Positions 52,820-59,565 of a DNA stretch of 64,000 nt are shown here, piece after piece. The notes under the pieces were generated by a model that saw only the letters and a list, made by a program, of their open reading frames with translations, was not told the DNA's origin and ran no database searches. Origin of the DNA: Syntrophales bacterium (GTDB lineage Bacteria; Desulfobacterota; Syntrophia; Syntrophales; UBA2210); assembly GCA_963666365.2 (NCBI GenBank), contig CAXXNF010000001.1, forward strand, positions 160,001-224,000. The letters run 5' to 3'. The first letter of the stretch is position 1. Every line of letters starts with the position of its first letter. The position numbers and the translations under genes were made by a program.

Positions 52820-53974
52820 TTAAAACTCGAAGGCCAGTCTTGCAAACACCTCGTCCGCGGTATCCTGTGCGGCGCTGCCGGCTGCCTTTTCATAATTGCT
52901 CCTGCGATATTCGATCATGAGCGTGGTTGCGAAATCGCCCTTTTCAAAGAGCCTGTAATTGGCGCCGAGAGAGGATCTGTTCTCCAGATGACCGTCCTGA
53001 TCGCCGTCAATATCGTCATCGAAGGCCTCATAGCGGACGGCTATTTCCAATGGATCCGTTACTTGAAAGGCAAGTGCGGCAAACCATGCGGATTCCTTAT
53101 ATTCTCTCCCATCCGTCGTGTGCAGTTCCCGTGCAACCGCAGCGATATATTCGGCATCGAAGGTAACCATTCCAGCCTGATACGCTATTGATCCACCCAC
53201 TGTGGTATTGCGATCCTGCTGTCCCGGTTCCGAATCGAAATACACGCTGAGAGACAGTCCTTCCAGGGGCGCCATAGACAGATTAAGGACATAGGAATTG
53301 ACGTCATCGGTCGGATCTGGGTTCGGATCGGGATCCCTCGTCCATCCATAGGCTGCCGCGGAAACCTTGTCCGCCAGCACCTCTCCCTTGTATATCGTGG
53401 CCGATACATCAAGCCCCCCTACAGCGTGGGTCAGGCCGATTGTCGCCCCGGTTTTGACGATTTCATAGCAGTCCTGGGTAATGGGATCATTGATGAAGTG
53501 GCTGTTGAACACCCCAAAAGGCTGCGTCCGCTTACCTCCGACGAAATACAGGGGGAATCTCTCCTTTTGTATGGTTATCATGGTTTCGTCCCAGAATACC
53601 CGATCGTCTTGGTCGAGGTTTTCTCCCTTGAGGGTTACATTGCCCGTTACCCACTCATTAAATTTCACTTCCAGGCCCAGTTCGGCTGTTCCGATATCGA
53701 ACTCCGAAGAGGAATCGCTGTCTGCATCGTTCAGATTCCTCGGATCCGTATAACTGAAATCCAGCTCAAGGGCGCCGGATATGCTGATTTTATCCAGCCA
53801 GGCTGCCGCCAAACCGGCGGAGGCGCCCTTTTCGATCTTCTGTTCTATTTCCATCACCTTTTGCGCAAGGGCATCGTTCGACATGGCGCCAATGGCCGGC
53901 GGGACAACCGCCAGCGCTACGGAACACACCACGCACACCACAGTTAACAATTTAATATTACGAATTTTCTTCAT
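52820..53974 (-). CDS. LbtU-like outer membrane porin
   Basis: Signal peptide, coiled coil, ISGALELD, PFG.F.SHFI.DP.T, alternating beta strands, C-terminal LAFEF. Confidence 0.78.
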   Translation of the reverse strand: MKKIRNIKLLTVVCVVCSVALAVVPPAIGAMSNDALAQKVMEIEQKIEKGASAGLAAAWLDKISISGALELDFSYTDPRNLNDADSDSSSEFDIGTAELGLEVKFNEWVTGNVTLKGENLDQDDRVFWDETMITIQKERFPLYFVGGKRTQPFGVFNSHFINDPITQDCYEIVKTGATIGLTHAVGGLDVSATIYKGEVLADKVSAAAYGWTRDPDPNPDPTDDVNSYVLNLSMAPLEGLSLSVYFDSEPGQQDRNTTVGGSIAYQAGMVTFDAEYIAAVARELHTTDGREYKESAWFAALAFQVTDPLEIAVRYEAFDDDIDGDQDGHLENRSSLGANYRLFEKGDFATTLMIEYRRSNYEKAAGSAAQDTADEVFARLAFEF

Positions 53975-54077
53975 GTACTTTATCCTCCATTGCATAATCA
54001 TCAATAAAACAAACTCTTGTTCCCGTTGCATGTATCACCGCATAGCGCTCGGTGATGCATTTCATCGGATATTTCAT

Positions 54078-54163
54078 AAAAAAAAGACGCCATGTTCTCT
54101 GTATGATTACAGTTATCCATGCGTCTTCACTTGTTCCGCCCTCTGTCGGACCCGTAAGTTCGC
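54078..54163 (-). promoter_or_regulatory. Leader terminator/antiterminator, copy 2 (upstream of the porin gene)
   Basis: GCGAACTTACGG...AAGTGAAGACGCATG...CATGGCGTCTTTTTTTT. Confidence 0.65.
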
Positions 54164-54199
54164 TTTTTTATAAAATTACCTTGATATATCCATTTCGCC

Positions 54200-54997
54200 C
54201 TACTTCATATCTCTGGCCTGCACCCAAATCACCGCATCCTGCGACAATTCCTTGCCTTTATAGTCTTTGTCCGGTCCGACTCCGAGGGCGCAAAATCCCC
54301 ACCAGCCGGCCCTGGGAATACCGAAAGAGAATTCACCGTTCACATTGGCCTTTATGGTCATGGTCACAAAGGCGTCCTGAGGCGCTTCCACTTCCGCTCG
54401 GGCGGAAAAAGCGTTCTTGTCCGGTTGCGGTTGGTGATTCATGTACTCCACCTCGATTTCCGCATAGGGAATGGGTTTGCCGTCGCTCAGGACGATTCCC
54501 CGGAACACGTTGCCGGTCCAGAGTGCATAGGGTTTGTCAAGCGGAACTATTTCCGCAGGAAGGCCGATCTTTGCATCCCAATCCGTGGGAAACCCACCGG
54601 TATTGACAACCATTTTGCTAATCTGCTGAATATAGCAATTCTCTTCCTTCTCCAAATACGGCGCCGGCACCAGACAGAATACATTGTCTCCCATGCCGCG
54701 CAGCTTGTACGTCGTCTCATAGGCCGCACCGCTGTTGGTAAGGCTGGTCCAGGAAATCGGCTTGACCGTTCGGAGCAAATCTTCTTTCTTTCCCTTGCGC
54801 ACTACAAAAAACTGTTCCGGCGCACCCATGTCCATAGTATGCCCCGCTTCGAAAGGGTGAGTGAAGACAAGTTTAAGGTCAATGGCCTCTGCCTTTCCCA
54901 ATGCCGATTCTGGCGTGTAAATCATCTGGAAATGGGCAAATGCCGGACCGGTCATACACATCATCATTCCAACCAACATAATAATTGCTTTTTTCAT
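54200..54997 (-). CDS. DUF4198 periplasmic metal-uptake protein
   Basis: Signal peptide ending AFA-H, FTHPFE, EIVPL.KPY, AEIEVEY, GWWGF.AL. Confidence 0.82.
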   Translation of the reverse strand: MKKAIIMLVGMMMCMTGPAFAHFQMIYTPESALGKAEAIDLKLVFTHPFEAGHTMDMGAPEQFFVVRKGKKEDLLRTVKPISWTSLTNSGAAYETTYKLRGMGDNVFCLVPAPYLEKEENCYIQQISKMVVNTGGFPTDWDAKIGLPAEIVPLDKPYALWTGNVFRGIVLSDGKPIPYAEIEVEYMNHQPQPDKNAFSARAEVEAPQDAFVTMTIKANVNGEFSFGIPRAGWWGFCALGVGPDKDYKGKELSQDAVIWVQARDMK

Positions 54998-55033
54998 AGA
55001 CACTTCTCCTTATTCTTTGTTTGATTTGGCAAT

Positions 55034-55357
55034 TTATTCAGCAATATCGTTCCCTTCTATCTCCACGACATGCCCCGGACCGGCGTCAAAATAAATCTTA
55101 TAGGGAACGGAAGGCTTCTCGAAGGTAAATTCACTGTTTTTATCCATTTTCCCATTGTTCAGCACCTTCCCCTGAACATCTTCCACACGCATCTGTACTC
55201 CCGAGGCCGAAGAGCCGTCCGAGAACCCGCCCTCGCACGTGACTGTTCCATCTCCGTTGTCGTAACAGGAGCAGAGCGGCGTATGGGCAATCACCCGGCC
55301 GGGCATTATGAATGCCAACGCCAGAATCCCCATAATTACTATTTTTTTTCTACACAT
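55034..55357 (-). CDS. Small exported protein of the feo operon
   Basis: Signal peptide then HTPLCSCYDNGDG..CEGGFSDGS, FDAGPGH. Confidence 0.75.
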   Translation of the reverse strand: MCRKKIVIMGILALAFIMPGRVIAHTPLCSCYDNGDGTVTCEGGFSDGSSASGVQMRVEDVQGKVLNNGKMDKNSEFTFEKPSVPYKIYFDAGPGHVVEIEGNDIAE

Positions 55358-55375
55358 CTTCTTTCCTCCTCTCTC

Positions 55376-57844
55376 TTATTCATGTTCGGATTTGTTTTTC
55401 AAAAAACCGGTTGCAATCGTCAGCGCCAAAGCTACGCCAAAAAAAGCGCCCATGGCCTGAAGCCCGGAAAGACCGAGCGCGCTCCCTCCTGAAAAGATCA
55501 GGCTTGCCGTCGCCAATCCCAGCGCCATGGGATAGACGATGGAAAAGAGCATCCATTTAATGGAACCGGACTGCAGTTTTACGGCGATGGCCGTGGCGAT
55601 GCAGGGCGGATAGAGCACCATGAACAGCATCAGCGCCAGGGCGTGCAGGGACGTAAAGCCCGCTTCACCCCTGGCCATGCGCTGCTCCAGGGCTTCCCCC
55701 TCTTCTTCCGCTTCATACAGCGCCCCAAGGGTGGCCACGCTGCTCTCCTTGGCGGCAAGCGCGCTCAGAAGGGCTACATTTACGCGCCAATTAAAACCGG
55801 CCGCCTGCGTGACCGGTTCCAGCCATTTCCCCAATTTTCCCAAAAAACTGGTATCGATGCGTTCCTGTCGCATGTGGCGTAGAAGATCCCTTCGCTCATT
55901 AAAGAGAGTTTTGAAGGCACGATTGACCTTCCCAGCAGCCTTGTCCGTTCCCGGCTGCACAATGCGGAAAAACACCGGATCACGCGATTCAAAGCGGGCA
56001 TTGAGCGCGGCAACCGCTGAACTGTCCGATTTCCTCATTTTGGCATTCTTGTAGTCATTCCAGTAGAGCACGAGATCCATTATCCGTTCGCCCTGCAGGT
56101 CTTTCTCATAGGATGTACCGTTCACCTTACTGAGAAACACGCCCAAGGCCTTGTCCTTTTCCGCGTGGTAATAGGCCATCCTCTCCTGTCCGATGCCGGG
56201 GAACTGCAGCAACACGAACAGGACCACCGCAACGGCCGCCACAACCGTCGTAATCTTTCTCAGAAACAGCCAGACCCGTTCCAGGGCGCGTCCCAGAACA
56301 CCGCGAACCGAGGGAAGGTGATATGATGGCATCTCCATGACAAAGGGCGCTGTTTCTTTCTTTCTCAAAACGGTCAACGTCAAAATTTTTGCGGTAGGAA
56401 GCACCAGAAGCAGGCTGATGGTGCTTATGAAGAACATGGCCAATCCTTTGTGCGCCGCAAAATAGATATTTATCAAAAGGACATACAGGGGCACCTTGGC
56501 CAGGCAGTTAAGCATCGGAATAATTAAAATGGTGGCAAGCCGCGACCGTTCGTCGGGAATGCCCTTACAGGACATCACACCCGGTACCGCGCAGCCGCCC
56601 ACGTAAATGCCTCCCAGCACCATGGGCAGTGTTGACTGACCATGGAGCCCATAGCGGCTGAACAGTCGATCCATGATAAAGGCCATCCGAGGCATGTAAC
56701 CGCTGTCCTCCAGTATGGCGATAAGACCGAAGAGAATGAAAAAAATGGGAATATAGTTCAGCAGGGCGTTAATGCTGTCGACACACCAGAGCGTAAAAGA
56801 CCGGATCAGCGGTATTTCTATGAACCCGGGATTCGGAGTAACGGCTTCGGCCACACTTCTCAGTGTGGCAAGAAGCGGCCACGTGTAATTGGTGACATTA
56901 TAGCCCTGCACAATGGAAAGATAATACAGCAGCCAGATGACCGTCAGAAGGATAAGCGGTCCGAGGAATTTGTGGCAGACAAAGCGGTCTATGAAATCGG
57001 TCGCTCTGCCCCTGCTGTTCGTTTCGTTCGTAACACAGGATGCAGATATTTCATCGGCCCTTTGATAGCGACGATGGGCAATATGCAGTTCAGGCATCTC
57101 GCCGTGTTCATGTTCGAAATCTTTTCGCAGTTTCTCGACGAATTCAAAGAATGCTGCGGATTGGGCATGGGCATCCTCTATCAGGCGCTTCGCCTCGCCA
57201 TCGCCCTCCATGAGTTTAATGGCCAGCCATCTCAGAGGATAGTGCACCGCCAGAGTGGTTTCAGACGCAAGCCGTTCACTGATGTCGCGCAGAAAAGGCT
57301 CCATATCGCCGTAATCAATGCGAACCGCCTTCGCAGGTTCTACCCCATCCAAGGCAGCATCAATGGCTTTGAGCAAATTCTGCTTCCCGGAACCGTTTTT
57401 CATGGACGTGGGAACGACAGGAACTCCTATCGTCTTCGAAAGCTTTACAACATCTATTTCGGCGCCGCTCCGTTTCGCCACGTCCATCATGTTCAGATTC
57501 AATATAACGGAAATGTCCATTTCCAGTAGCTGAAAAGTAAAGTACAGACTGCGCTTCAGATTCGACGCATCTACGACATTGATGGCAACTGCCGGGTTCT
57601 CATGAAGAATGAAATCTCGCGTGACTCGTTCTTCTGGAGAATAAAAAGTAAGGCTGTACGCACCGGGAAGATCAACCACTTCCACCCTGACACCGTTATA
57701 TCGATACCATCCGACCATCTTGTCCACGGTTACGCCGGGATAATTGGCCACGTGCTGGCTCGCACCGGTAAGTGCATTAAACACGGTGGACTTGCCGCAA
57801 TTAGGCTGTCCGGCAAGAGAGATCAGGTACTTTTGGCCTTTCAT
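55376..57844 (-). CDS. feoB: Ferrous iron transporter B
   Basis: GQPNCGKS, NYPGVTV, DLPG, NMMD G-motifs; EDSGYMPR gate; LYPPC. Confidence 0.96.
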   Translation of the reverse strand: MKGQKYLISLAGQPNCGKSTVFNALTGASQHVANYPGVTVDKMVGWYRYNGVRVEVVDLPGAYSLTFYSPEERVTRDFILHENPAVAINVVDASNLKRSLYFTFQLLEMDISVILNLNMMDVAKRSGAEIDVVKLSKTIGVPVVPTSMKNGSGKQNLLKAIDAALDGVEPAKAVRIDYGDMEPFLRDISERLASETTLAVHYPLRWLAIKLMEGDGEAKRLIEDAHAQSAAFFEFVEKLRKDFEHEHGEMPELHIAHRRYQRADEISASCVTNETNSRGRATDFIDRFVCHKFLGPLILLTVIWLLYYLSIVQGYNVTNYTWPLLATLRSVAEAVTPNPGFIEIPLIRSFTLWCVDSINALLNYIPIFFILFGLIAILEDSGYMPRMAFIMDRLFSRYGLHGQSTLPMVLGGIYVGGCAVPGVMSCKGIPDERSRLATILIIPMLNCLAKVPLYVLLINIYFAAHKGLAMFFISTISLLLVLPTAKILTLTVLRKKETAPFVMEMPSYHLPSVRGVLGRALERVWLFLRKITTVVAAVAVVLFVLLQFPGIGQERMAYYHAEKDKALGVFLSKVNGTSYEKDLQGERIMDLVLYWNDYKNAKMRKSDSSAVAALNARFESRDPVFFRIVQPGTDKAAGKVNRAFKTLFNERRDLLRHMRQERIDTSFLGKLGKWLEPVTQAAGFNWRVNVALLSALAAKESSVATLGALYEAEEEGEALEQRMARGEAGFTSLHALALMLFMVLYPPCIATAIAVKLQSGSIKWMLFSIVYPMALGLATASLIFSGGSALGLSGLQAMGAFFGVALALTIATGFLKNKSEHE

Positions 57845-58065
57845 GGCAGTTCCACCTCGACAAATCGAGCCTCTTCGTGACGGAGACTGATGCAGTAGCC
57901 GTCCAGTGCAACTTCCATGGGATCGTCAAGAGGGGCGTTTCGAATTACCCTCATCCTCAAACCGGGATACACCCCCATATCGAGCAGTCTCTGCCCCAGT
58001 GTATCGACTGTTTTCAATTTTTTAATACGACACTCGCCACCCGGTTTAATCTGATCCAGCGTCAT
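57841..58065 (-). CDS. feoA: Ferrous iron transport protein A
   Basis: RLLDMG, APLDDP, SLRHEEA; 4-nt overlap with feoB. Confidence 0.95.
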   Translation of the reverse strand: MTLDQIKPGGECRIKKLKTVDTLGQRLLDMGVYPGLRMRVIRNAPLDDPMEVALDGYCISLRHEEARFVEVELP

Positions 58066-58084
58066 GTTTCATTCTCCTCAGTTC

Positions 58085-58177
58085 AAAAACAAAAAGGCGC
58101 AACCTGATGCGCTTCGCACGCTTCAAGTTGCGCCTTCGCTTCCATCGCGCCGATAAAGGCCGACGGCCGCAAGCCGC
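58085..58177 (-). promoter_or_regulatory. Leader terminator/antiterminator, copy 1 (upstream of feoA)
   Basis: GCGGCTTGCGG...AAGCGAAGGCGCAAC...GTTGCGCCTTTTTGTTTTT ending about 20 nt before the feoA start. Confidence 0.7.
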
Positions 58178-58331
58178 ACCACATAATGTTCGATTACTAT
58201 ACCTTAAAAATAATTGCCTAATGTACGTACTATTCTTACATCGTCACGCATTTTTAAATGCCCTTGATTCATCTTCATACCCTCATTGATCTTCAACATA
58301 TGATTTGCCCCTTCCGTTTCTGCTCGCGCAT

Positions 58332-58685
58332 TCACAAAAAATTCCTCTGGGACTGTGACACAGGCGATTCGATCAACACCTGCGTCAGTTTTTTACGCAA
58401 AATTTCAAGCTGCCTTGATTTGAAGGCCTTTCTACTCTGCTCCAATACTTCTATGGCTTCTTTAAGCGCATTTTCCAACTTGAGTTCTCTCGTTCGTGCA
58501 TGACACATCCATTCAAGTGCGTGCAGAGAGTGGTCATCGCCCTGTTCTTTCAGAAAAGAAGCTACAAGAATGCAATGTGCAGTTATACCGCGTTGAAGCT
58601 CTTTCATGCTTGCGCTGAGCGCATTAAGTAGAGTTGTATCTGAGATCTGCATAAACTTATATTTACCTTCCAATGTTATATTCAT
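58332..58685 (-). CDS. Hypothetical helical protein (start may be the second Met, MQISD)
   Basis: Open frame between dtxR and feoA; amphipathic C-terminus EAIEVLEQSRKAFKSRQLEILRKKL. Confidence 0.6.
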   Translation of the reverse strand: MNITLEGKYKFMQISDTTLLNALSASMKELQRGITAHCILVASFLKEQGDDHSLHALEWMCHARTRELKLENALKEAIEVLEQSRKAFKSRQLEILRKKLTQVLIESPVSQSQRNFL

Positions 58686-58764: not shown

Positions 58765-59322
58765 TCACCCCTCATTATCTTCATTGTCACCCAAATCAAT
58801 CTGGCTTCTAAATTCACAGGAAAACGCTGCGCCGTTCTTTCGACATTTGTCAGGATCGCAGCCCTGCTGCCGGTATTCCTCGAAATAGCGAAGCCAGCTC
58901 TCGCCGGTTCGTGGGCATATCTGAACAAATTCCATAAAGTCCGTCAACGTTGCCAGCGTTGAGGCACTGAGTATATGCTCCATTTTGCAGGCCTCTTCGT
59001 CGGCAACGGTGCCTTCGATTCGCAATATTTCAGTCAAAAACCTGCGCAATGCTTCGTGCCTGCGGCGCATCTCCTTTCCGACGGCGGCTCCGCTTTTCGT
59101 CAGCTCTACATATTCATATCGTTCGTAATGGATCAATCCATTATTTTTCAATGTTTTCAACATGCTGGACACGGTGGGCATCTTGACGTTCATCCGCTTG
59201 GCGATATCTTTGACGCGCACCACCCTTTTTTCCTTATCGAGATCGAAAATGGTTTCCAGATAGTCTTCCATGACCGACGTCAAAGGTTTCTCATCCTCTT
59301 TTTTTTCATTATGGAGTATCAC
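58765..59322 (-). CDS. DtxR/MntR family metal-dependent repressor
   Basis: LTSVMEDYLETI, VRVKDIA, PTVSSML, RRHEAL, EACKMEH. Confidence 0.93.
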   Translation of the reverse strand: MILHNEKKEDEKPLTSVMEDYLETIFDLDKEKRVVRVKDIAKRMNVKMPTVSSMLKTLKNNGLIHYERYEYVELTKSGAAVGKEMRRRHEALRRFLTEILRIEGTVADEEACKMEHILSASTLATLTDFMEFVQICPRTGESWLRYFEEYRQQGCDPDKCRKNGAAFSCEFRSQIDLGDNEDNEG

Positions 59323-59335
59323 GATGCATGCTCCT

Positions 59336-59353
59336 TGTTAGAATTATCTAACA
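59336..59353. promoter_or_regulatory. Putative DtxR-family operator TGTTAGA-N4-TCTAACA
   Basis: Palindrome just upstream of the regulator; near-copy at 58674-58691. Confidence 0.65.
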
Positions 59354-59565
59354 TAGATTTGATTAACTAATAATTTACTCTGCCCTTCATGTCAAGCTTT
59401 TTTTGAAATAGTCTTGCGGCACACAGCGCAATATTGTACTCTTCTTCGCGTCGGGAACCGTTTTCCATCGCTGTACTCTTTGAAACTCCAGGGGACTTAC
59501 ACCACACAGACAGCCGCCACTACAAAGGATAGGGCGGTAATAACGCATTTAAAAGGGAGAACTCC

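Follow-up and report, generated by a model that had tools for sequence, protein, structure and literature searches.

A previously undescribed leader RNA, widespread in sulfate-reducer-type bacteria, gates a terminator in front of iron-uptake genes, and it occurs twice in the 64-kb stretch of Syntrophales bacterium DNA analysed here (the window). The two copies lie on the minus strand before feoA and before a porin gene, where the sequence-only reading of this DNA had placed them (Table 1). The RNA almost always travels with a small gene, X, whose product is probably its partner, and the explanation we favour, at a probability of roughly 0.55, is X-dependent antitermination layered on DtxR repression.

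Table 1. Coordinates of the features at the dtxR-X-feo-porin locus, numbered within the window
Feature	Position	Strand	Remarks
Promoter-like site upstream of dtxR	59367..59395	minus	TTGACA, 17 nt, TATTAG; putative function
Palindrome TTAGAATTATCTAA (TTAG-N6-CTAA)	59338..59351		candidate DtxR-family operator; putative binding
dtxR-family iron-dependent repressor gene (185 aa)	58765..59322	minus	Pfam Fe_dep_repress 9e-21, Fe_dep_repr_C 6.6e-19
Gene X (117-aa all-helical basic protein)	58332..58685	minus	candidate trans-acting RNA partner
RNA copy 1, whole leader with terminator	58085-58185	minus	before feoA
RNA copy 1, sensor-like domain	58124..58185	minus	63 bits, E 3e-15 with model R1, of whose training set this copy is a member
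Intrinsic terminator of copy 1	58085..58137	minus	5' arm AAGGCGCAAC... shared with P1 as its 3' strand
feoA	57841..58065	minus	Pfam FeoA 3.6e-20
feoB (822 aa)	55376..57844	minus	Pfam FeoB_N 3.7e-61, also Gate, FeoB_Cyto, FeoB_C
Secreted protein (107 aa)	55034..55357	minus	no Pfam match
DUF4198 protein with signal peptide	54200..55003	minus	Pfam DUF4198 6.2e-56
RNA copy 2, whole leader with terminator	54078-54170	minus	before LbtU-type porin
RNA copy 2, sensor-like domain	54115..54170	minus	36.2 bits, E 1.7e-7 with model R1
Intrinsic terminator of copy 2	54078..54128	minus	GAAGACGCAUGG...CAUGGCGUC then U8
LbtU-family siderophore-porin gene	52820..54031	minus	NCBIfam LbtU_sider_porin, 128.7 bits (cut-off 90); likely true start ATG at 53974, behind GGAGG

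Copy 1 reads UGCG-G-CUU-GCGG, the hairpin P2 (58166-58142), AAGC-GAAGG-CGCA and then the terminator (58137-58085); its helix P1 pairs U58178-G58175 and C58173-U58171 with A58136-G58134 and C58132-A58129, and its core sets G58170, C58169, G58168 and G58167 against A58141, A58140, G58139 and C58138, with G58137 bulged. Copy 2 reads GCG-AA-CUU-ACGG, the hairpin GUCCG..CGGAAC and AAGUGAAGA-CGC (AAGU-GAAGA-CGCA 3' of the hairpin), followed by the terminator (54128-54078). The likeness of the two is beyond chance and they are true copies of one leader RNA. A 13-mer common to both, AAGYGAAGRCGCA, was found twice in 64 kb with at most one mismatch in comparison to 0.25 expected, and a count of two or more was reached in none of 100 shuffles; the folds of both leaders were also more stable than those of shuffles (z of -3.3 and -4.2), and not one shuffle in 200 was as good. 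In a set of 61 genomes surrounding a carrier unrelated to this one, a pattern made from the two window copies alone gave 20 matches in comparison to 5 with the reversed control, and 17 of the 20 precede iron genes and have a terminator. An orthologue of copy 2 from a metagenome (L089), whose porin is 81% identical, has the same domain and differs in the terminator loop and stem. The 4.0-Mb genome holds only these two copies, by pattern as well as by covariance model.

A covariance model built from the window copies and their homologues gave 76 matches at E<=0.01 in 74 sources. The family fold consists of P1 (AUGUCUU/AAGGCGU, 7 bp), a near-invariant core (CUUACGG / AAGUGAAGG, with a bulged G, an A-U, a C-G and two G-A oppositions) and the strongly covarying hairpin P2, whose loops are of no fixed length or sequence among the 76 members. 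The 16 core positions are kept in 70 to 76 of the 76 copies and have covarying helices on either side. The percentage of paired cells was 90.8% in comparison to 77.5% for shuffles and 37% to 61% when the 3' partners were slid (an earlier MAFFT alignment gave 88.8% in comparison to 79.8%), and changes on both sides were found in 14 of 20 pairs, with 203 such cells, a level reached by 0 of 500 shuffles; covariation in homologues, on which the sequence-only reading had made its proposal depend, is thus present. Within P1, pair 10-88 was UG in 50, UA in 11 and CG in 5 cases, pair 11-87 was GC in 63, AU in 4 and GU in 3, and pair 12-86 was UG in 57 and CG in 11, and rare variants preserve the helix through double changes from CUU/AAG to CCU/AGG or UUU/AAA. 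That reading had also taken GCTT/AAGC and ACTT/AAGT as one covarying stem closed by GCG/CGC. The closure holds and there is a covarying G-C / A-U pair, but the register is shifted: family-wide, CUU pairs with the AAG within GAAGG and not with the first AAG, and the covarying pair is formed by the base that follows CUU on its 3' side and the Y behind the first AAG (A-U in 71, G-U in 3, G-C in 1 and unpaired in 0 of 75 distinct rows). The window by itself cannot separate the two registers, because the bases flanking CUU are the same R within each copy.

An intrinsic terminator was found by script after 70 of the 76 copies, at least four of these detections (L190, L193, L214, L241) having ended at an early T-run within a longer stem, and each starts in the 3' strand of P1. 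This strand, AAGGCGU, opens the 5' arm of the terminator; the alternative pairing is conserved, and the two folds are mutually exclusive, as had been claimed from the window copies. Like a riboswitch, the element joins a conserved, covarying aptamer-type fold to an expression platform, and like a transcription attenuator it has an intrinsic terminator directly upstream of an ORF together with a conserved competing pairing. Folded alone, the sensor-like segment of copy 1 takes the family consensus (-28.2 kcal/mol), and for both full leaders the terminator form has the minimum free energy (-50.1 kcal/mol for copy 1 and -23.9 kcal/mol for copy 2). The U-run ends 10 to 40 nt before the start codon (19 nt for the window's feoA), a gap which holds a ribosome-binding site only and leaves no space for a separate promoter; the downstream ORFs therefore depend on read-through. 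A RyhB/PrrF-type iron-regulated small RNA gene was rejected on the same spacing.

The RNA was present in 40 of 151 genomes around a relative, G726, with up to 6 copies each, and in 5 of 150 genomes, from 5 families, in an even sample of the phylum. Searches with Rfam 15 returned only a tRNA for the whole window at the gathering threshold, three weak matches at E<=10 for the region 53900-58400, none on the leaders, and no match at E<=0.1 for the members L166, L168, L194 and L255; as a control, the cobalamin riboswitch in L075 was recovered at 107.5 bits. Membership in an Rfam 15 family was rejected since no model matched the leaders; this covers cobalamin, NiCo, yybP-ykoY, fluoride and T-box, which the sequence-only reading had likewise failed to match. 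Neither Rfam 15 nor the papers searched describe a leader RNA gating iron-uptake genes.

The genes downstream of the RNA belong together as a response to iron starvation: feoA/feoB, porins, TonB-dependent receptors, TonB, DUF3450, DUF4198 and flavodoxin, which confirms the expected association with metal genes and ties it to iron acquisition. The 107-aa secreted protein in the window has a weak NikL-like NCBIfam match under the cut-off (51.6 bits against 100). The palindrome upstream of dtxR is the only exact TTAG-N6-CTAA within the window. In other genomes the TTGACA-17-TATTAG form lies upstream of free-standing RNA copies, which begin about 25 to 35 nt downstream of the promoter and so open the transcript, and TTAG-N6-CTAA overlaps the -10 element of promoters upstream of RNA copies. 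The idea of an attenuator acting on top of DtxR repression is supported by this overlap at promoters feeding the element.

The element would be metal-responsive or protein-dependent according to the sequence-only reading, and the evidence leans to the protein-dependent branch because a conserved small gene, X, missed by that reading, is present. X stands in a dtxR-X-RNA cassette and is 40% identical (E 3e-19) to a 95-aa gene at the equivalent position in G726, and its C-terminus RKAFKSxxLExLRKxL is invariant. No match was found in Pfam (E<=0.01), NCBIfam or, by Foldseek, the PDB, nor any fold match or recognisable RNA-binding domain, and membership in the HutP, PyrR, TRAP, BglG/CAT or ANTAR families was rejected accordingly; the 1246 clusters of the family at 90% identity are all annotated as 'hypothetical'. 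X is single-copy in the window's genome and mostly so elsewhere, in comparison to 1 to 6 copies of the RNA.

At 32 of the 76 copies X lies on the strand of the RNA and stops no more than 83 nt before it, the gap being at most 16 nt in 20 of these, so that its placement in the operon and upstream of the terminator is of the HutP/PyrR type; in the window X ends 150 nt upstream of copy 1 and is not immediately adjacent. The genes after X-RNA pairs vary (feoA, feoB, DUF2325, LbtU porin, FmdE), and of the 25 distinct places that have 430 nt or more of upstream sequence, 23 show a DtxR homologue before X on the same strand. For the 151 genomes around G726, 36 had RNA and X, 4 RNA only, 8 X only and 103 neither, and for the phylum sample (n = 150) 4 had both, 1 (a 66%-complete genome) RNA only and 2 X only, tables which overstate the case because related genomes are not independent. 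A variant RNA directly after X was seen by eye in 4 of the 8 X-only genomes, and such a variant was present in one of the two X-only genomes of the phylum sample. In the window's own family (38 genomes) the three genomes with X are the three with RNA, and relatives with a different porin leader are without X. The 4 of 40 RNA-positive genomes without X even at E<=1, one of which has 4 RNA copies, are all draft assemblies, as is the RNA-positive G342, where no X was found; assembly incompleteness may account for the missing X.

The nascent RNA can fold either as the sensor-like hairpin (P1, core and P2) or as the terminator, and by itself it favours the terminator. We propose that X, a small, helical and basic protein, binds the conserved core and clamps P1 closed, so that RNA polymerase would read through. 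At high iron, DtxR would repress the promoters via the palindrome, and little X would therefore be made; at low iron, more dtxR-X transcript would let X build up and open the terminators before feoAB and the porin, as well as those that other genomes have before receptors, TonB/DUF3450 and flavodoxin. Control by DtxR would thereby gain a feed-forward AND gate, and X may also sense a ligand. The position of X upstream of its would-be target terminator, with dtxR in front, speaks for this proposal. Against it, joint inheritance of one dtxR-X-RNA-feo cassette could explain the linkage without direct contact, the X-dtxR linkage is as tight as the X-RNA linkage, riboswitches, too, are known to take the shape of a hairpin whose internal loop is conserved, and in the RNA-positive drafts named above no X was found.

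The strongest rival is a self-sufficient ON riboswitch in which P1, core and P2 would bind a small molecule or ion, lock P1 and block termination, X being merely the first gene of the cassette. The near-invariant core between covarying helices, the overlap of P1 with the terminator, which is the classic ON-platform layout, the free-standing copies at transcript 5' ends, the several copies per genome with one tandem pair and the five RNA-positive drafts without detected X are all consistent with it. Its ligand would signal iron shortage or demand and not iron, because the genes serve iron uptake and sparing, and an unknown ligand must be assumed, because ON logic with an iron ligand would be senseless for uptake genes. 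A riboswitch works without a protein and should be distributed independently of any one of them, but RNA and X hardly ever occur apart, which leans against such independence without deciding the matter; where X lies upstream of the switch it is therefore not regulated by that switch; and the core is a nearly continuous helix with few free bases for a pocket. We consider this riboswitch rather unlikely. It is improbable that another trans factor is at work, either a small RNA under iron control that pairs with AAGUGAAGG or some other protein, with X partnering DtxR or Feo instead: X adjoins dtxR, the conserved purine-rich strand could be a pairing site and DUF2325 genes recur beside X, but neither a candidate small RNA nor a second conserved neighbour was found, and X stays directly before the RNA even with a non-feo gene downstream. 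Least probable of all, and very much so, is the absence of regulation, with ordinary or leaky terminators (operon punctuation or stabilisers of mRNA 3' ends) or small-RNA genes having a functional terminated product, since a plain terminator needs neither 16 near-invariant bases nor a competing covarying upstream hairpin and the ORFs just past the U-run depend on read-through, even though the best fold of the full leaders is the terminator and the free-standing copies, with their own promoter and terminator, resemble small-RNA genes.

Bacterial iron uptake is a textbook case of repressor-operator control by Fur and DtxR, and small RNAs come in at a later step. In the present case a single RNA motif is the common mark of feoAB, porins, TonB-dependent receptors, TonB/DUF3450 and flavodoxin at up to 6 places per genome, the pattern is seen in several families of anaerobic sediment bacteria, and the motif is accompanied by a dedicated protein family without annotation. 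If X binds the RNA, the two would make a testable two-part system of about 95 aa and about 60 nt, and X would found a new antiterminator protein class; otherwise the RNA is a strong candidate for an orphan riboswitch, with a ligand that would report iron shortage. Either way, the motif is a ready annotation marker for the iron regulon of uncultured Desulfobacterota. We suggest only tentatively, well short of even odds, that the RNA, alone or with X, is an iron-status sensor, be it an antitermination counterpart of IRE/IRP or the first riboswitch class switching on iron uptake, giving the Desulfobacterota a regulon control that replaces or stands beside Fur/DtxR operators.

Among the closest known arrangements is the hut operon of Bacillus subtilis, in which the HutP gene comes first, an intrinsic terminator precedes the structural genes and the RNA site of HutP overlaps the terminator, giving read-through. 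Here too a small regulator gene precedes a terminator overlapped by the predicted regulator site, but X is not a HutP family member, having no Pfam or NCBIfam match, the RNA forms a hairpin around an internal core in comparison to the UAG repeats of hut, and up to 6 target sites are spread over an iron regulon. In the pyr attenuators and the trp leader, PyrR and TRAP choose between terminator and antiterminator and promote termination at high end product. As with PyrR, the regulator would be encoded in the regulated operon and have several sites per genome, whereas the architecture here predicts that binding prevents termination, and there is neither sequence nor family relation to PyrR or TRAP. 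The ON-type czcD/NiCo and yybP-ykoY riboswitches, all in Rfam, turn on exporters at high metal; they share the use of the P1 3' strand as terminator 5' arm and the position before metal-homeostasis genes, and differ in that here importers and flavodoxin lie downstream, protein X is a companion and Rfam 15 gives no match. The IRE is a hairpin in iron-metabolism transcripts, with an apical loop CAGUGN and a bulged C, bound at low iron by IRP, an aconitase. The present RNA is likewise a hairpin in iron-metabolism transcripts that would be protein-bound at low iron, but IRE membership was rejected because no apical loop is conserved, the P2 loops varying freely; the action would be on transcription termination in comparison to translation or stability, and X, at about 95 aa, is no aconitase. 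According to Rodionov et al. 2004 (PMC545781), the Fur regulon of other delta-proteobacteria comprises feoAB, OprB-type and other porins, flavodoxin and an AraC-type regulator under a DNA operator, the Fur box, with no such box found in Desulfotalea psychrophila. The same gene set lies downstream here, and the shared signal, unlike the Fur box, consists of an RNA accompanied by a DtxR-type palindrome.

The present analysis, which was computational throughout, identified a conserved RNA upstream of iron-acquisition genes, whose stem P1 competes with a terminator and which is linked to dtxR and to X, a gene for a small protein, predicted to be helical, without known family. All of the motif elements named by the sequence-only reading were found in the window sequence, and its failure to match them to the cobalamin, yybP-ykoY, NiCo, fluoride, or T-box consensus was borne out by a search of Rfam 15, in which no model matched the leaders of the window or four other members. 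The gene identities in the window were taken from Pfam and NCBIfam.

Positions of the leader RNA, its neighbouring genes in the window, and related leaders at other loci
Feature	Position	Strand	Remark
Promoter-like site with palindrome TTAGAATTATCTAA	59395-59338	minus	first in unit, before dtxR
dtxR	59322-58765	minus	Pfam
X, 117-aa gene, no known family	58685-58332	minus	
Spacer from X to RNA copy 1	146 nt	minus	
RNA copy 1 with terminator	58185-58085	minus	
feoA, feoB, 107-aa secreted protein, DUF4198 protein	58065-54200	minus	Pfam (no match for the 107-aa protein)
RNA copy 2 with terminator	54170-54078	minus	
Porin gene	54031/53974-52820	minus	'LbtU family siderophore porin' by NCBIfam (128.7 bits; cut-off 90)
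'Type A' leader	L035:2680-2815	minus (L035)	example; also L036-L041, L074, L076, L081 and about 12 metagenome loci
Cobalamin riboswitch before porin homologue	L075:1993-2180	plus	'Candidatus Desulfaltia' MAG
Tandem RNA copies	L269 (G351:C91:25650-26300)	minus	

A 13-mer shared by the two leaders occurred at only two sites in the window, in comparison to 0.25 expected. Two strict patterns were tried and rejected: CTTNCGG..AAGNGAAGNCGC matched in 53 of the 339 genomes of the order with a reversed control about equally frequent, its recurrent matches being coding sequence such as the HTH regions of sigma-54 activators, and CTTRCGG..AAGYGAAGRCRC gave 4 foreign matches in a phylum sample of 401 genomes, each within a long open frame. 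These early patterns missed true members because the bases after GAAG, which are variable in reality, had been wrongly fixed; the missed members were later recovered with the covariance model R1. Homologues of the window's porin carried several kinds of leader, with the motif of the window in six distinct ones, and the relative G726 carried three copies of the RNA, one each ahead of the porin, feoA-feoB, and a DUF3450 gene. When a pattern derived from the window's two copies alone was applied to 61 relatives of G726, 20 matches were obtained in comparison to 5 for the reversed control; 17 of them were in front of iron genes, and the remaining three (L177, L180, and L181), which had no terminator and resembled chance or coding matches, were discarded.

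R1 was built from 23 aligned sequences (alignment A3) and a hand-written structure. Among 151 relatives of G726 it matched in 40, giving 71 matches that were often clustered and numbered as many as 6 per genome. It further gave matches in 5 of 150 other genomes of an even phylum sample, which belong to five different families, and 76 matches over all the sequence gathered for the analysis (alignment A4), where the assemblies searched were mostly drafts and membership was decided with tools that favour the consensus. For the window's own family, only the genome of the window (1 of 38) matched at E<=0.1, and a variant was seen in two more genomes, at 25.2 and 18.6 bits, with the filters off. The window's copies, both of which belonged to the training set, scored 63 and 36.2 bits, and they were the only two in the whole 4.0-Mb genome by pattern and covariance model.

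The consensus of the RNA reads 5' to 3' AGG-N-AUGUCUU-A-C-GG-[P2]-AA-G-U-G-AAGGCGU, in which P1 is formed by AUGUCUU with AAGGCGU, the core, going inward from P1, consists of a bulged G, an A-U pair, a C-G pair, and two G-A oppositions, and P2 is a hairpin beyond the core that is free in sequence and length. The percentage of paired cells was 90.8% in A4 in comparison to 77.5% in shuffles and 37% to 61% with the partners slid, and both sides changed at 14 of 20 pairs (203 cells), so that the covariation claimed from the sequence is present in homologues. A4 was fitted to the model, which biases it toward the structure; A3, which was aligned independently with MAFFT, gave 88.8% in comparison to 79.8% and change on both sides at 10 pairs. 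P2 holds most of the covariation. For P1, support comes from U-G/U-A/C-G and G-C/A-U exchanges and from rare variants of the otherwise invariant CUU/AAG, namely CCU/AGG or UUU/AAA; its outermost pair is weak, being unpaired in 31 of 75 rows. The stem register proposed earlier held in part: the covarying pair is real, corresponding to the base 3' of CUU with the Y following the first AAG (a G-C there is found in the window's copy 1 alone among 75 rows), but the supposed GAAGR bulge was wrong, as its AAG pairs with CUU. The core letters CUUACGG and AAGUGAAGG were kept in 70 to 76 of the 76 copies, and the true variability of the core must be larger than counted since the searches that yielded the members, by model or by pattern, reward those letters. 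K-turn and loop-E readings of the core were considered by hand, and the way in which the G-A oppositions are ordered over the two strands speaks against a K-turn. In addition, the P2 loop of three feoA leaders (L171, L185, and L186) reads AAGCGAGA or AAGUGAAC, resembling the conserved 3' core AAGUGAAG, and purine-rich P2 loops, ACAGAGGG and AUAGAAGG, occur in the window's copy 2 and L170; if the binder is dimeric, these loops could offer it another point of contact.

The two competing folds of the sequence-only reading were confirmed, as the 3' strand of P1 is the 5' arm of the terminator: by a simple script, a hairpin with a U-run starting within that strand was detected behind 70 of the 76 copies. 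For copy 1, the sensor segment alone folds to the consensus at -28.2 kcal/mol and the full leader prefers the terminator at -50.1 kcal/mol, and the corresponding values for copy 2 were -12.1 and -23.9 kcal/mol. The feoA start codon in the window is only 19 nt past the U-run, so that feoA needs read-through. This is the layout of an ON device, in which anything that stabilises P1 prevents termination. Six copies were without a terminator, and two of these, the feoA leaders L205 and L185 (genomes G731 and G739), run straight into the ribosome-binding site. There, the domain is followed by CUUGGAUCUUUUAUAAA(A/G)(A/U)AGGAG with the start codon behind it, pointing to a translational platform instead of a terminator.

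A simple script was used to take the nearest ORF behind each of the 76 copies, and Pfam and NCBIfam to identify it. This ORF was FeoA for 27 copies, FeoB directly for 1, an LbtU-type porin for about 12 (by homology to the window's porin, several being Porin_4 in Pfam), a further Porin_4 for 1, an OprB-type porin for 3, a Phenol_MetA_deg outer-membrane channel for 2, a TonB-dependent receptor for 4, TonB_C for 1, DUF3450 for 4 or perhaps 5, DUF4198 for 1, flavodoxin for 2, and DUF2325 for 2. ECF sigma, Slp, HU, FmdE, AraC-type, AhpC, a TSP3/dockerin protein, and a 259-aa protein were found once each, the AraC and AhpC assignments being uncertain because those ORFs begin more than 240 nt away; 123-aa proteins without family assignment and short ORFs without assignment followed 2 copies each, and for 3 copies the contig ended with no ORF. 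Judging from the gene functions, the genes behind the RNA would be induced by iron starvation. Rodionov et al. (PMC545781) assigned the same set in other delta-proteobacteria to Fur, namely feoAB, porins with OprB-type ones among them, flavodoxin, and an AraC-type regulator, and reported that no Fur box was found in Desulfotalea psychrophila.

Other leaders were also observed before the same porin family. The 'type A' leader, flagged by regular expression at 20 of 96 porin loci, is a second conserved leader before the LbtU-type porin genes of the window's relatives, whichever gene lies upstream, and consists of a long hairpin, RAARGGUCAGCAAGGGG-[..GGUUUGGCGGCC..]-CCCCUUGCUGACCC, followed by a second hairpin, long, irregular, and terminator-like, whose base is CCUUY-RAAGRCA. 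It had no Rfam match at E<=1, and the idea that it is the RNA in disguise was rejected, as only the GAAGRC terminator base is common to both, R1 had no match in those genomes, and X is absent; it was treated as a putative separate class. The 'type C' leader (25 of 96 porin loci by regular expression; L079, L082, L085, and L101-L160) is a third class, in which a promoter is followed by a hairpin whose loop is AGAA/AAGAA, a spacer rich in A/U (AGAAUAACGNUAAGUAAAAAAGG), and a terminator, GGCCACGRAGG...CUUCGUGGCC with a U-run, directly before the porin ribosome-binding site; four examples had no Rfam match. At L075, a cobalamin riboswitch (107.5 bits) precedes a 67% identical homologue of the porin, which suggests that the family also serves corrinoid or metal uptake.

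The window X and its positional counterpart in G726, a gene of 95 aa, are 40% identical (E 3e-19), and a tblastn search over all collected loci showed that X repeatedly ends just before an RNA copy. X was found on the same strand within 83 nt upstream at 32 of the 76 copies (within 16 nt at 20 of these) and farther upstream at three, namely 150 nt from copy 1 and 4165 nt from copy 2 in the window, and 1115 nt at L203, while 41 copies had no X in the upstream sequence covered, which is usually only 150 nt. Among the 151 relatives of G726, which are not independent of one another, 36 had RNA and X, 4 RNA only, 8 X only, and 103 neither. The 8 genomes with X only included three with the CCU/AGG variant RNA directly after X, a fourth with it about 230 nt on, and two in which the X match was weak and inside larger frames; the four with RNA only, drafts of unknown completeness, had no X even at E<=1, and one of them, G841, carries four RNA copies, all free-standing. 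For the 150 genomes of the even phylum sample, likewise not independent, the numbers were 4 with both (adjacent in 4 of 4), 1 with RNA only (66% complete), and 2 with X only, one having the UUU/AAA variant RNA right after X and the other a weak X match within a 363-aa frame; the two samples overlap, because one handle in each (G475 and G761) has identical coordinates. In the window's own family, X is present in 3 of 38 genomes, the same three that carry the RNA. X is single-copy in the window's genome and most others. At 23 of the 25 distinct places for which sufficient sequence was available, it is preceded by a DtxR homologue on the same strand, and the conserved unit is dtxR-(feoA-like)-X-RNA, with a varying gene downstream of the X-RNA pair.

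The X protein is predicted to be all-helical with three helices (a moderate model with pLDDT 74 and pTM 0.34), its basic and nearly invariant C-terminal helix reads RKAFKSxxLExLRKxL, and there is no invariant Cys or His. No Pfam, NCBIfam, or Foldseek PDB match was obtained, and the ESM Atlas returned only hypothetical proteins and generic helical hairpins for the fold. Its 1246 relatives at 90% clustering, all unnamed, occurred in records labelled Desulfobacteraceae, 'Deltaproteobacteria', and Thermodesulfobacteriota and in sediment metagenomes. A protein of 415 to 425 aa, with DUF2325 at its C-terminus and an N-terminal motif containing Cys, ..FWEI..F.KCPV.G.CLT..EQ.., is encoded immediately behind X or the X-RNA pair in five or more genomes (L219, L225, L261, L262, and L269), and it may be part of the same system. 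At L269, two RNA copies lie in tandem about 35 nt apart behind one X gene, with a terminator after the first and none after the second, followed by the DUF2325-type gene; that genome has two X genes with the RNA adjoining each.

Upstream of free-standing RNA copies there is a TTGACA and, after 17 nt, TATTAG or GATATT, with a palindrome TTAG-N6-CTAA overlapping or following the -10 element and P1 beginning some 25 to 35 nt past the expected start site. The single exact TTAG-N6-CTAA in the 64-kb window is between a TTGACA-type promoter and dtxR, and it stands out strongly because TTAG and CTAA are very rare there (28 and 30 occurrences in comparison to about 250 expected for a random tetramer by our arithmetic); the palindrome is predicted to be the DtxR operator. 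No comparable promoter was found in the spacer before copy 1, and the 6.5-kb unit may thus form a single transcript that is gated at two internal points. The porin-bearing relatives closest to the window's genome (L045-L048 from G254, G250, G242, and G237) have feoB split into two genes, one for the GTPase part (about 225 aa) and one for the membrane part (about 590 aa), and each of two feoA genes lies behind a promoter with a TTAG-N6-CTAA-type palindrome, but the RNA motif is absent from these feoA leaders.

The best reading, to which we would assign a probability of roughly 0.55, is that X binds the core and stabilises P1, resulting in read-through. As X would be made from a DtxR-repressed promoter, the terminators would open only once de-repression had lasted long enough for X to build up, and the outcome would be a feed-forward gate; X may need a ligand as well. 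This role of X is favoured by the mutually dependent distributions of X and the RNA, by the location of X before and not after the gate, by the presence of a single gene for many sites, and by the core itself, a nearly regular helix with a bulge, which is the kind of site that proteins read. Against it, X has no known RNA-binding fold and five RNA-positive drafts are without X, and the main rival, a self-sufficient ON riboswitch whose ligand is a signal of iron shortage, is regarded as unlikely yet deserving of attention. X is equally linked to dtxR, which also argues against its contact with the RNA; that another trans factor acts on the RNA while X serves DtxR or Feo appears quite improbable. 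Least credence is given to the absence of regulation, or to a small-RNA gene, for an element coupled to a terminator in front of iron genes. Ribosome-mediated attenuation through translation of X was rejected as a general mechanism on account of the copies without X in the upstream sequence covered.

A search of freely available full-text articles found no description of the RNA or X, and neither is described in the accessible parts of PMC545781 and PMC2864571. In terms of mode of action, the proposed gate would work like the HutP and PyrR systems, but the RNA and X are not members of these, as all protein families tried failed, and it would also work like ON-type metal riboswitches, of which the RNA is no member, as every Rfam model failed. 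What is new here is the RNA family, its candidate protein partner, and the proposed regulon logic for iron, while the underlying kind of control is attenuation.
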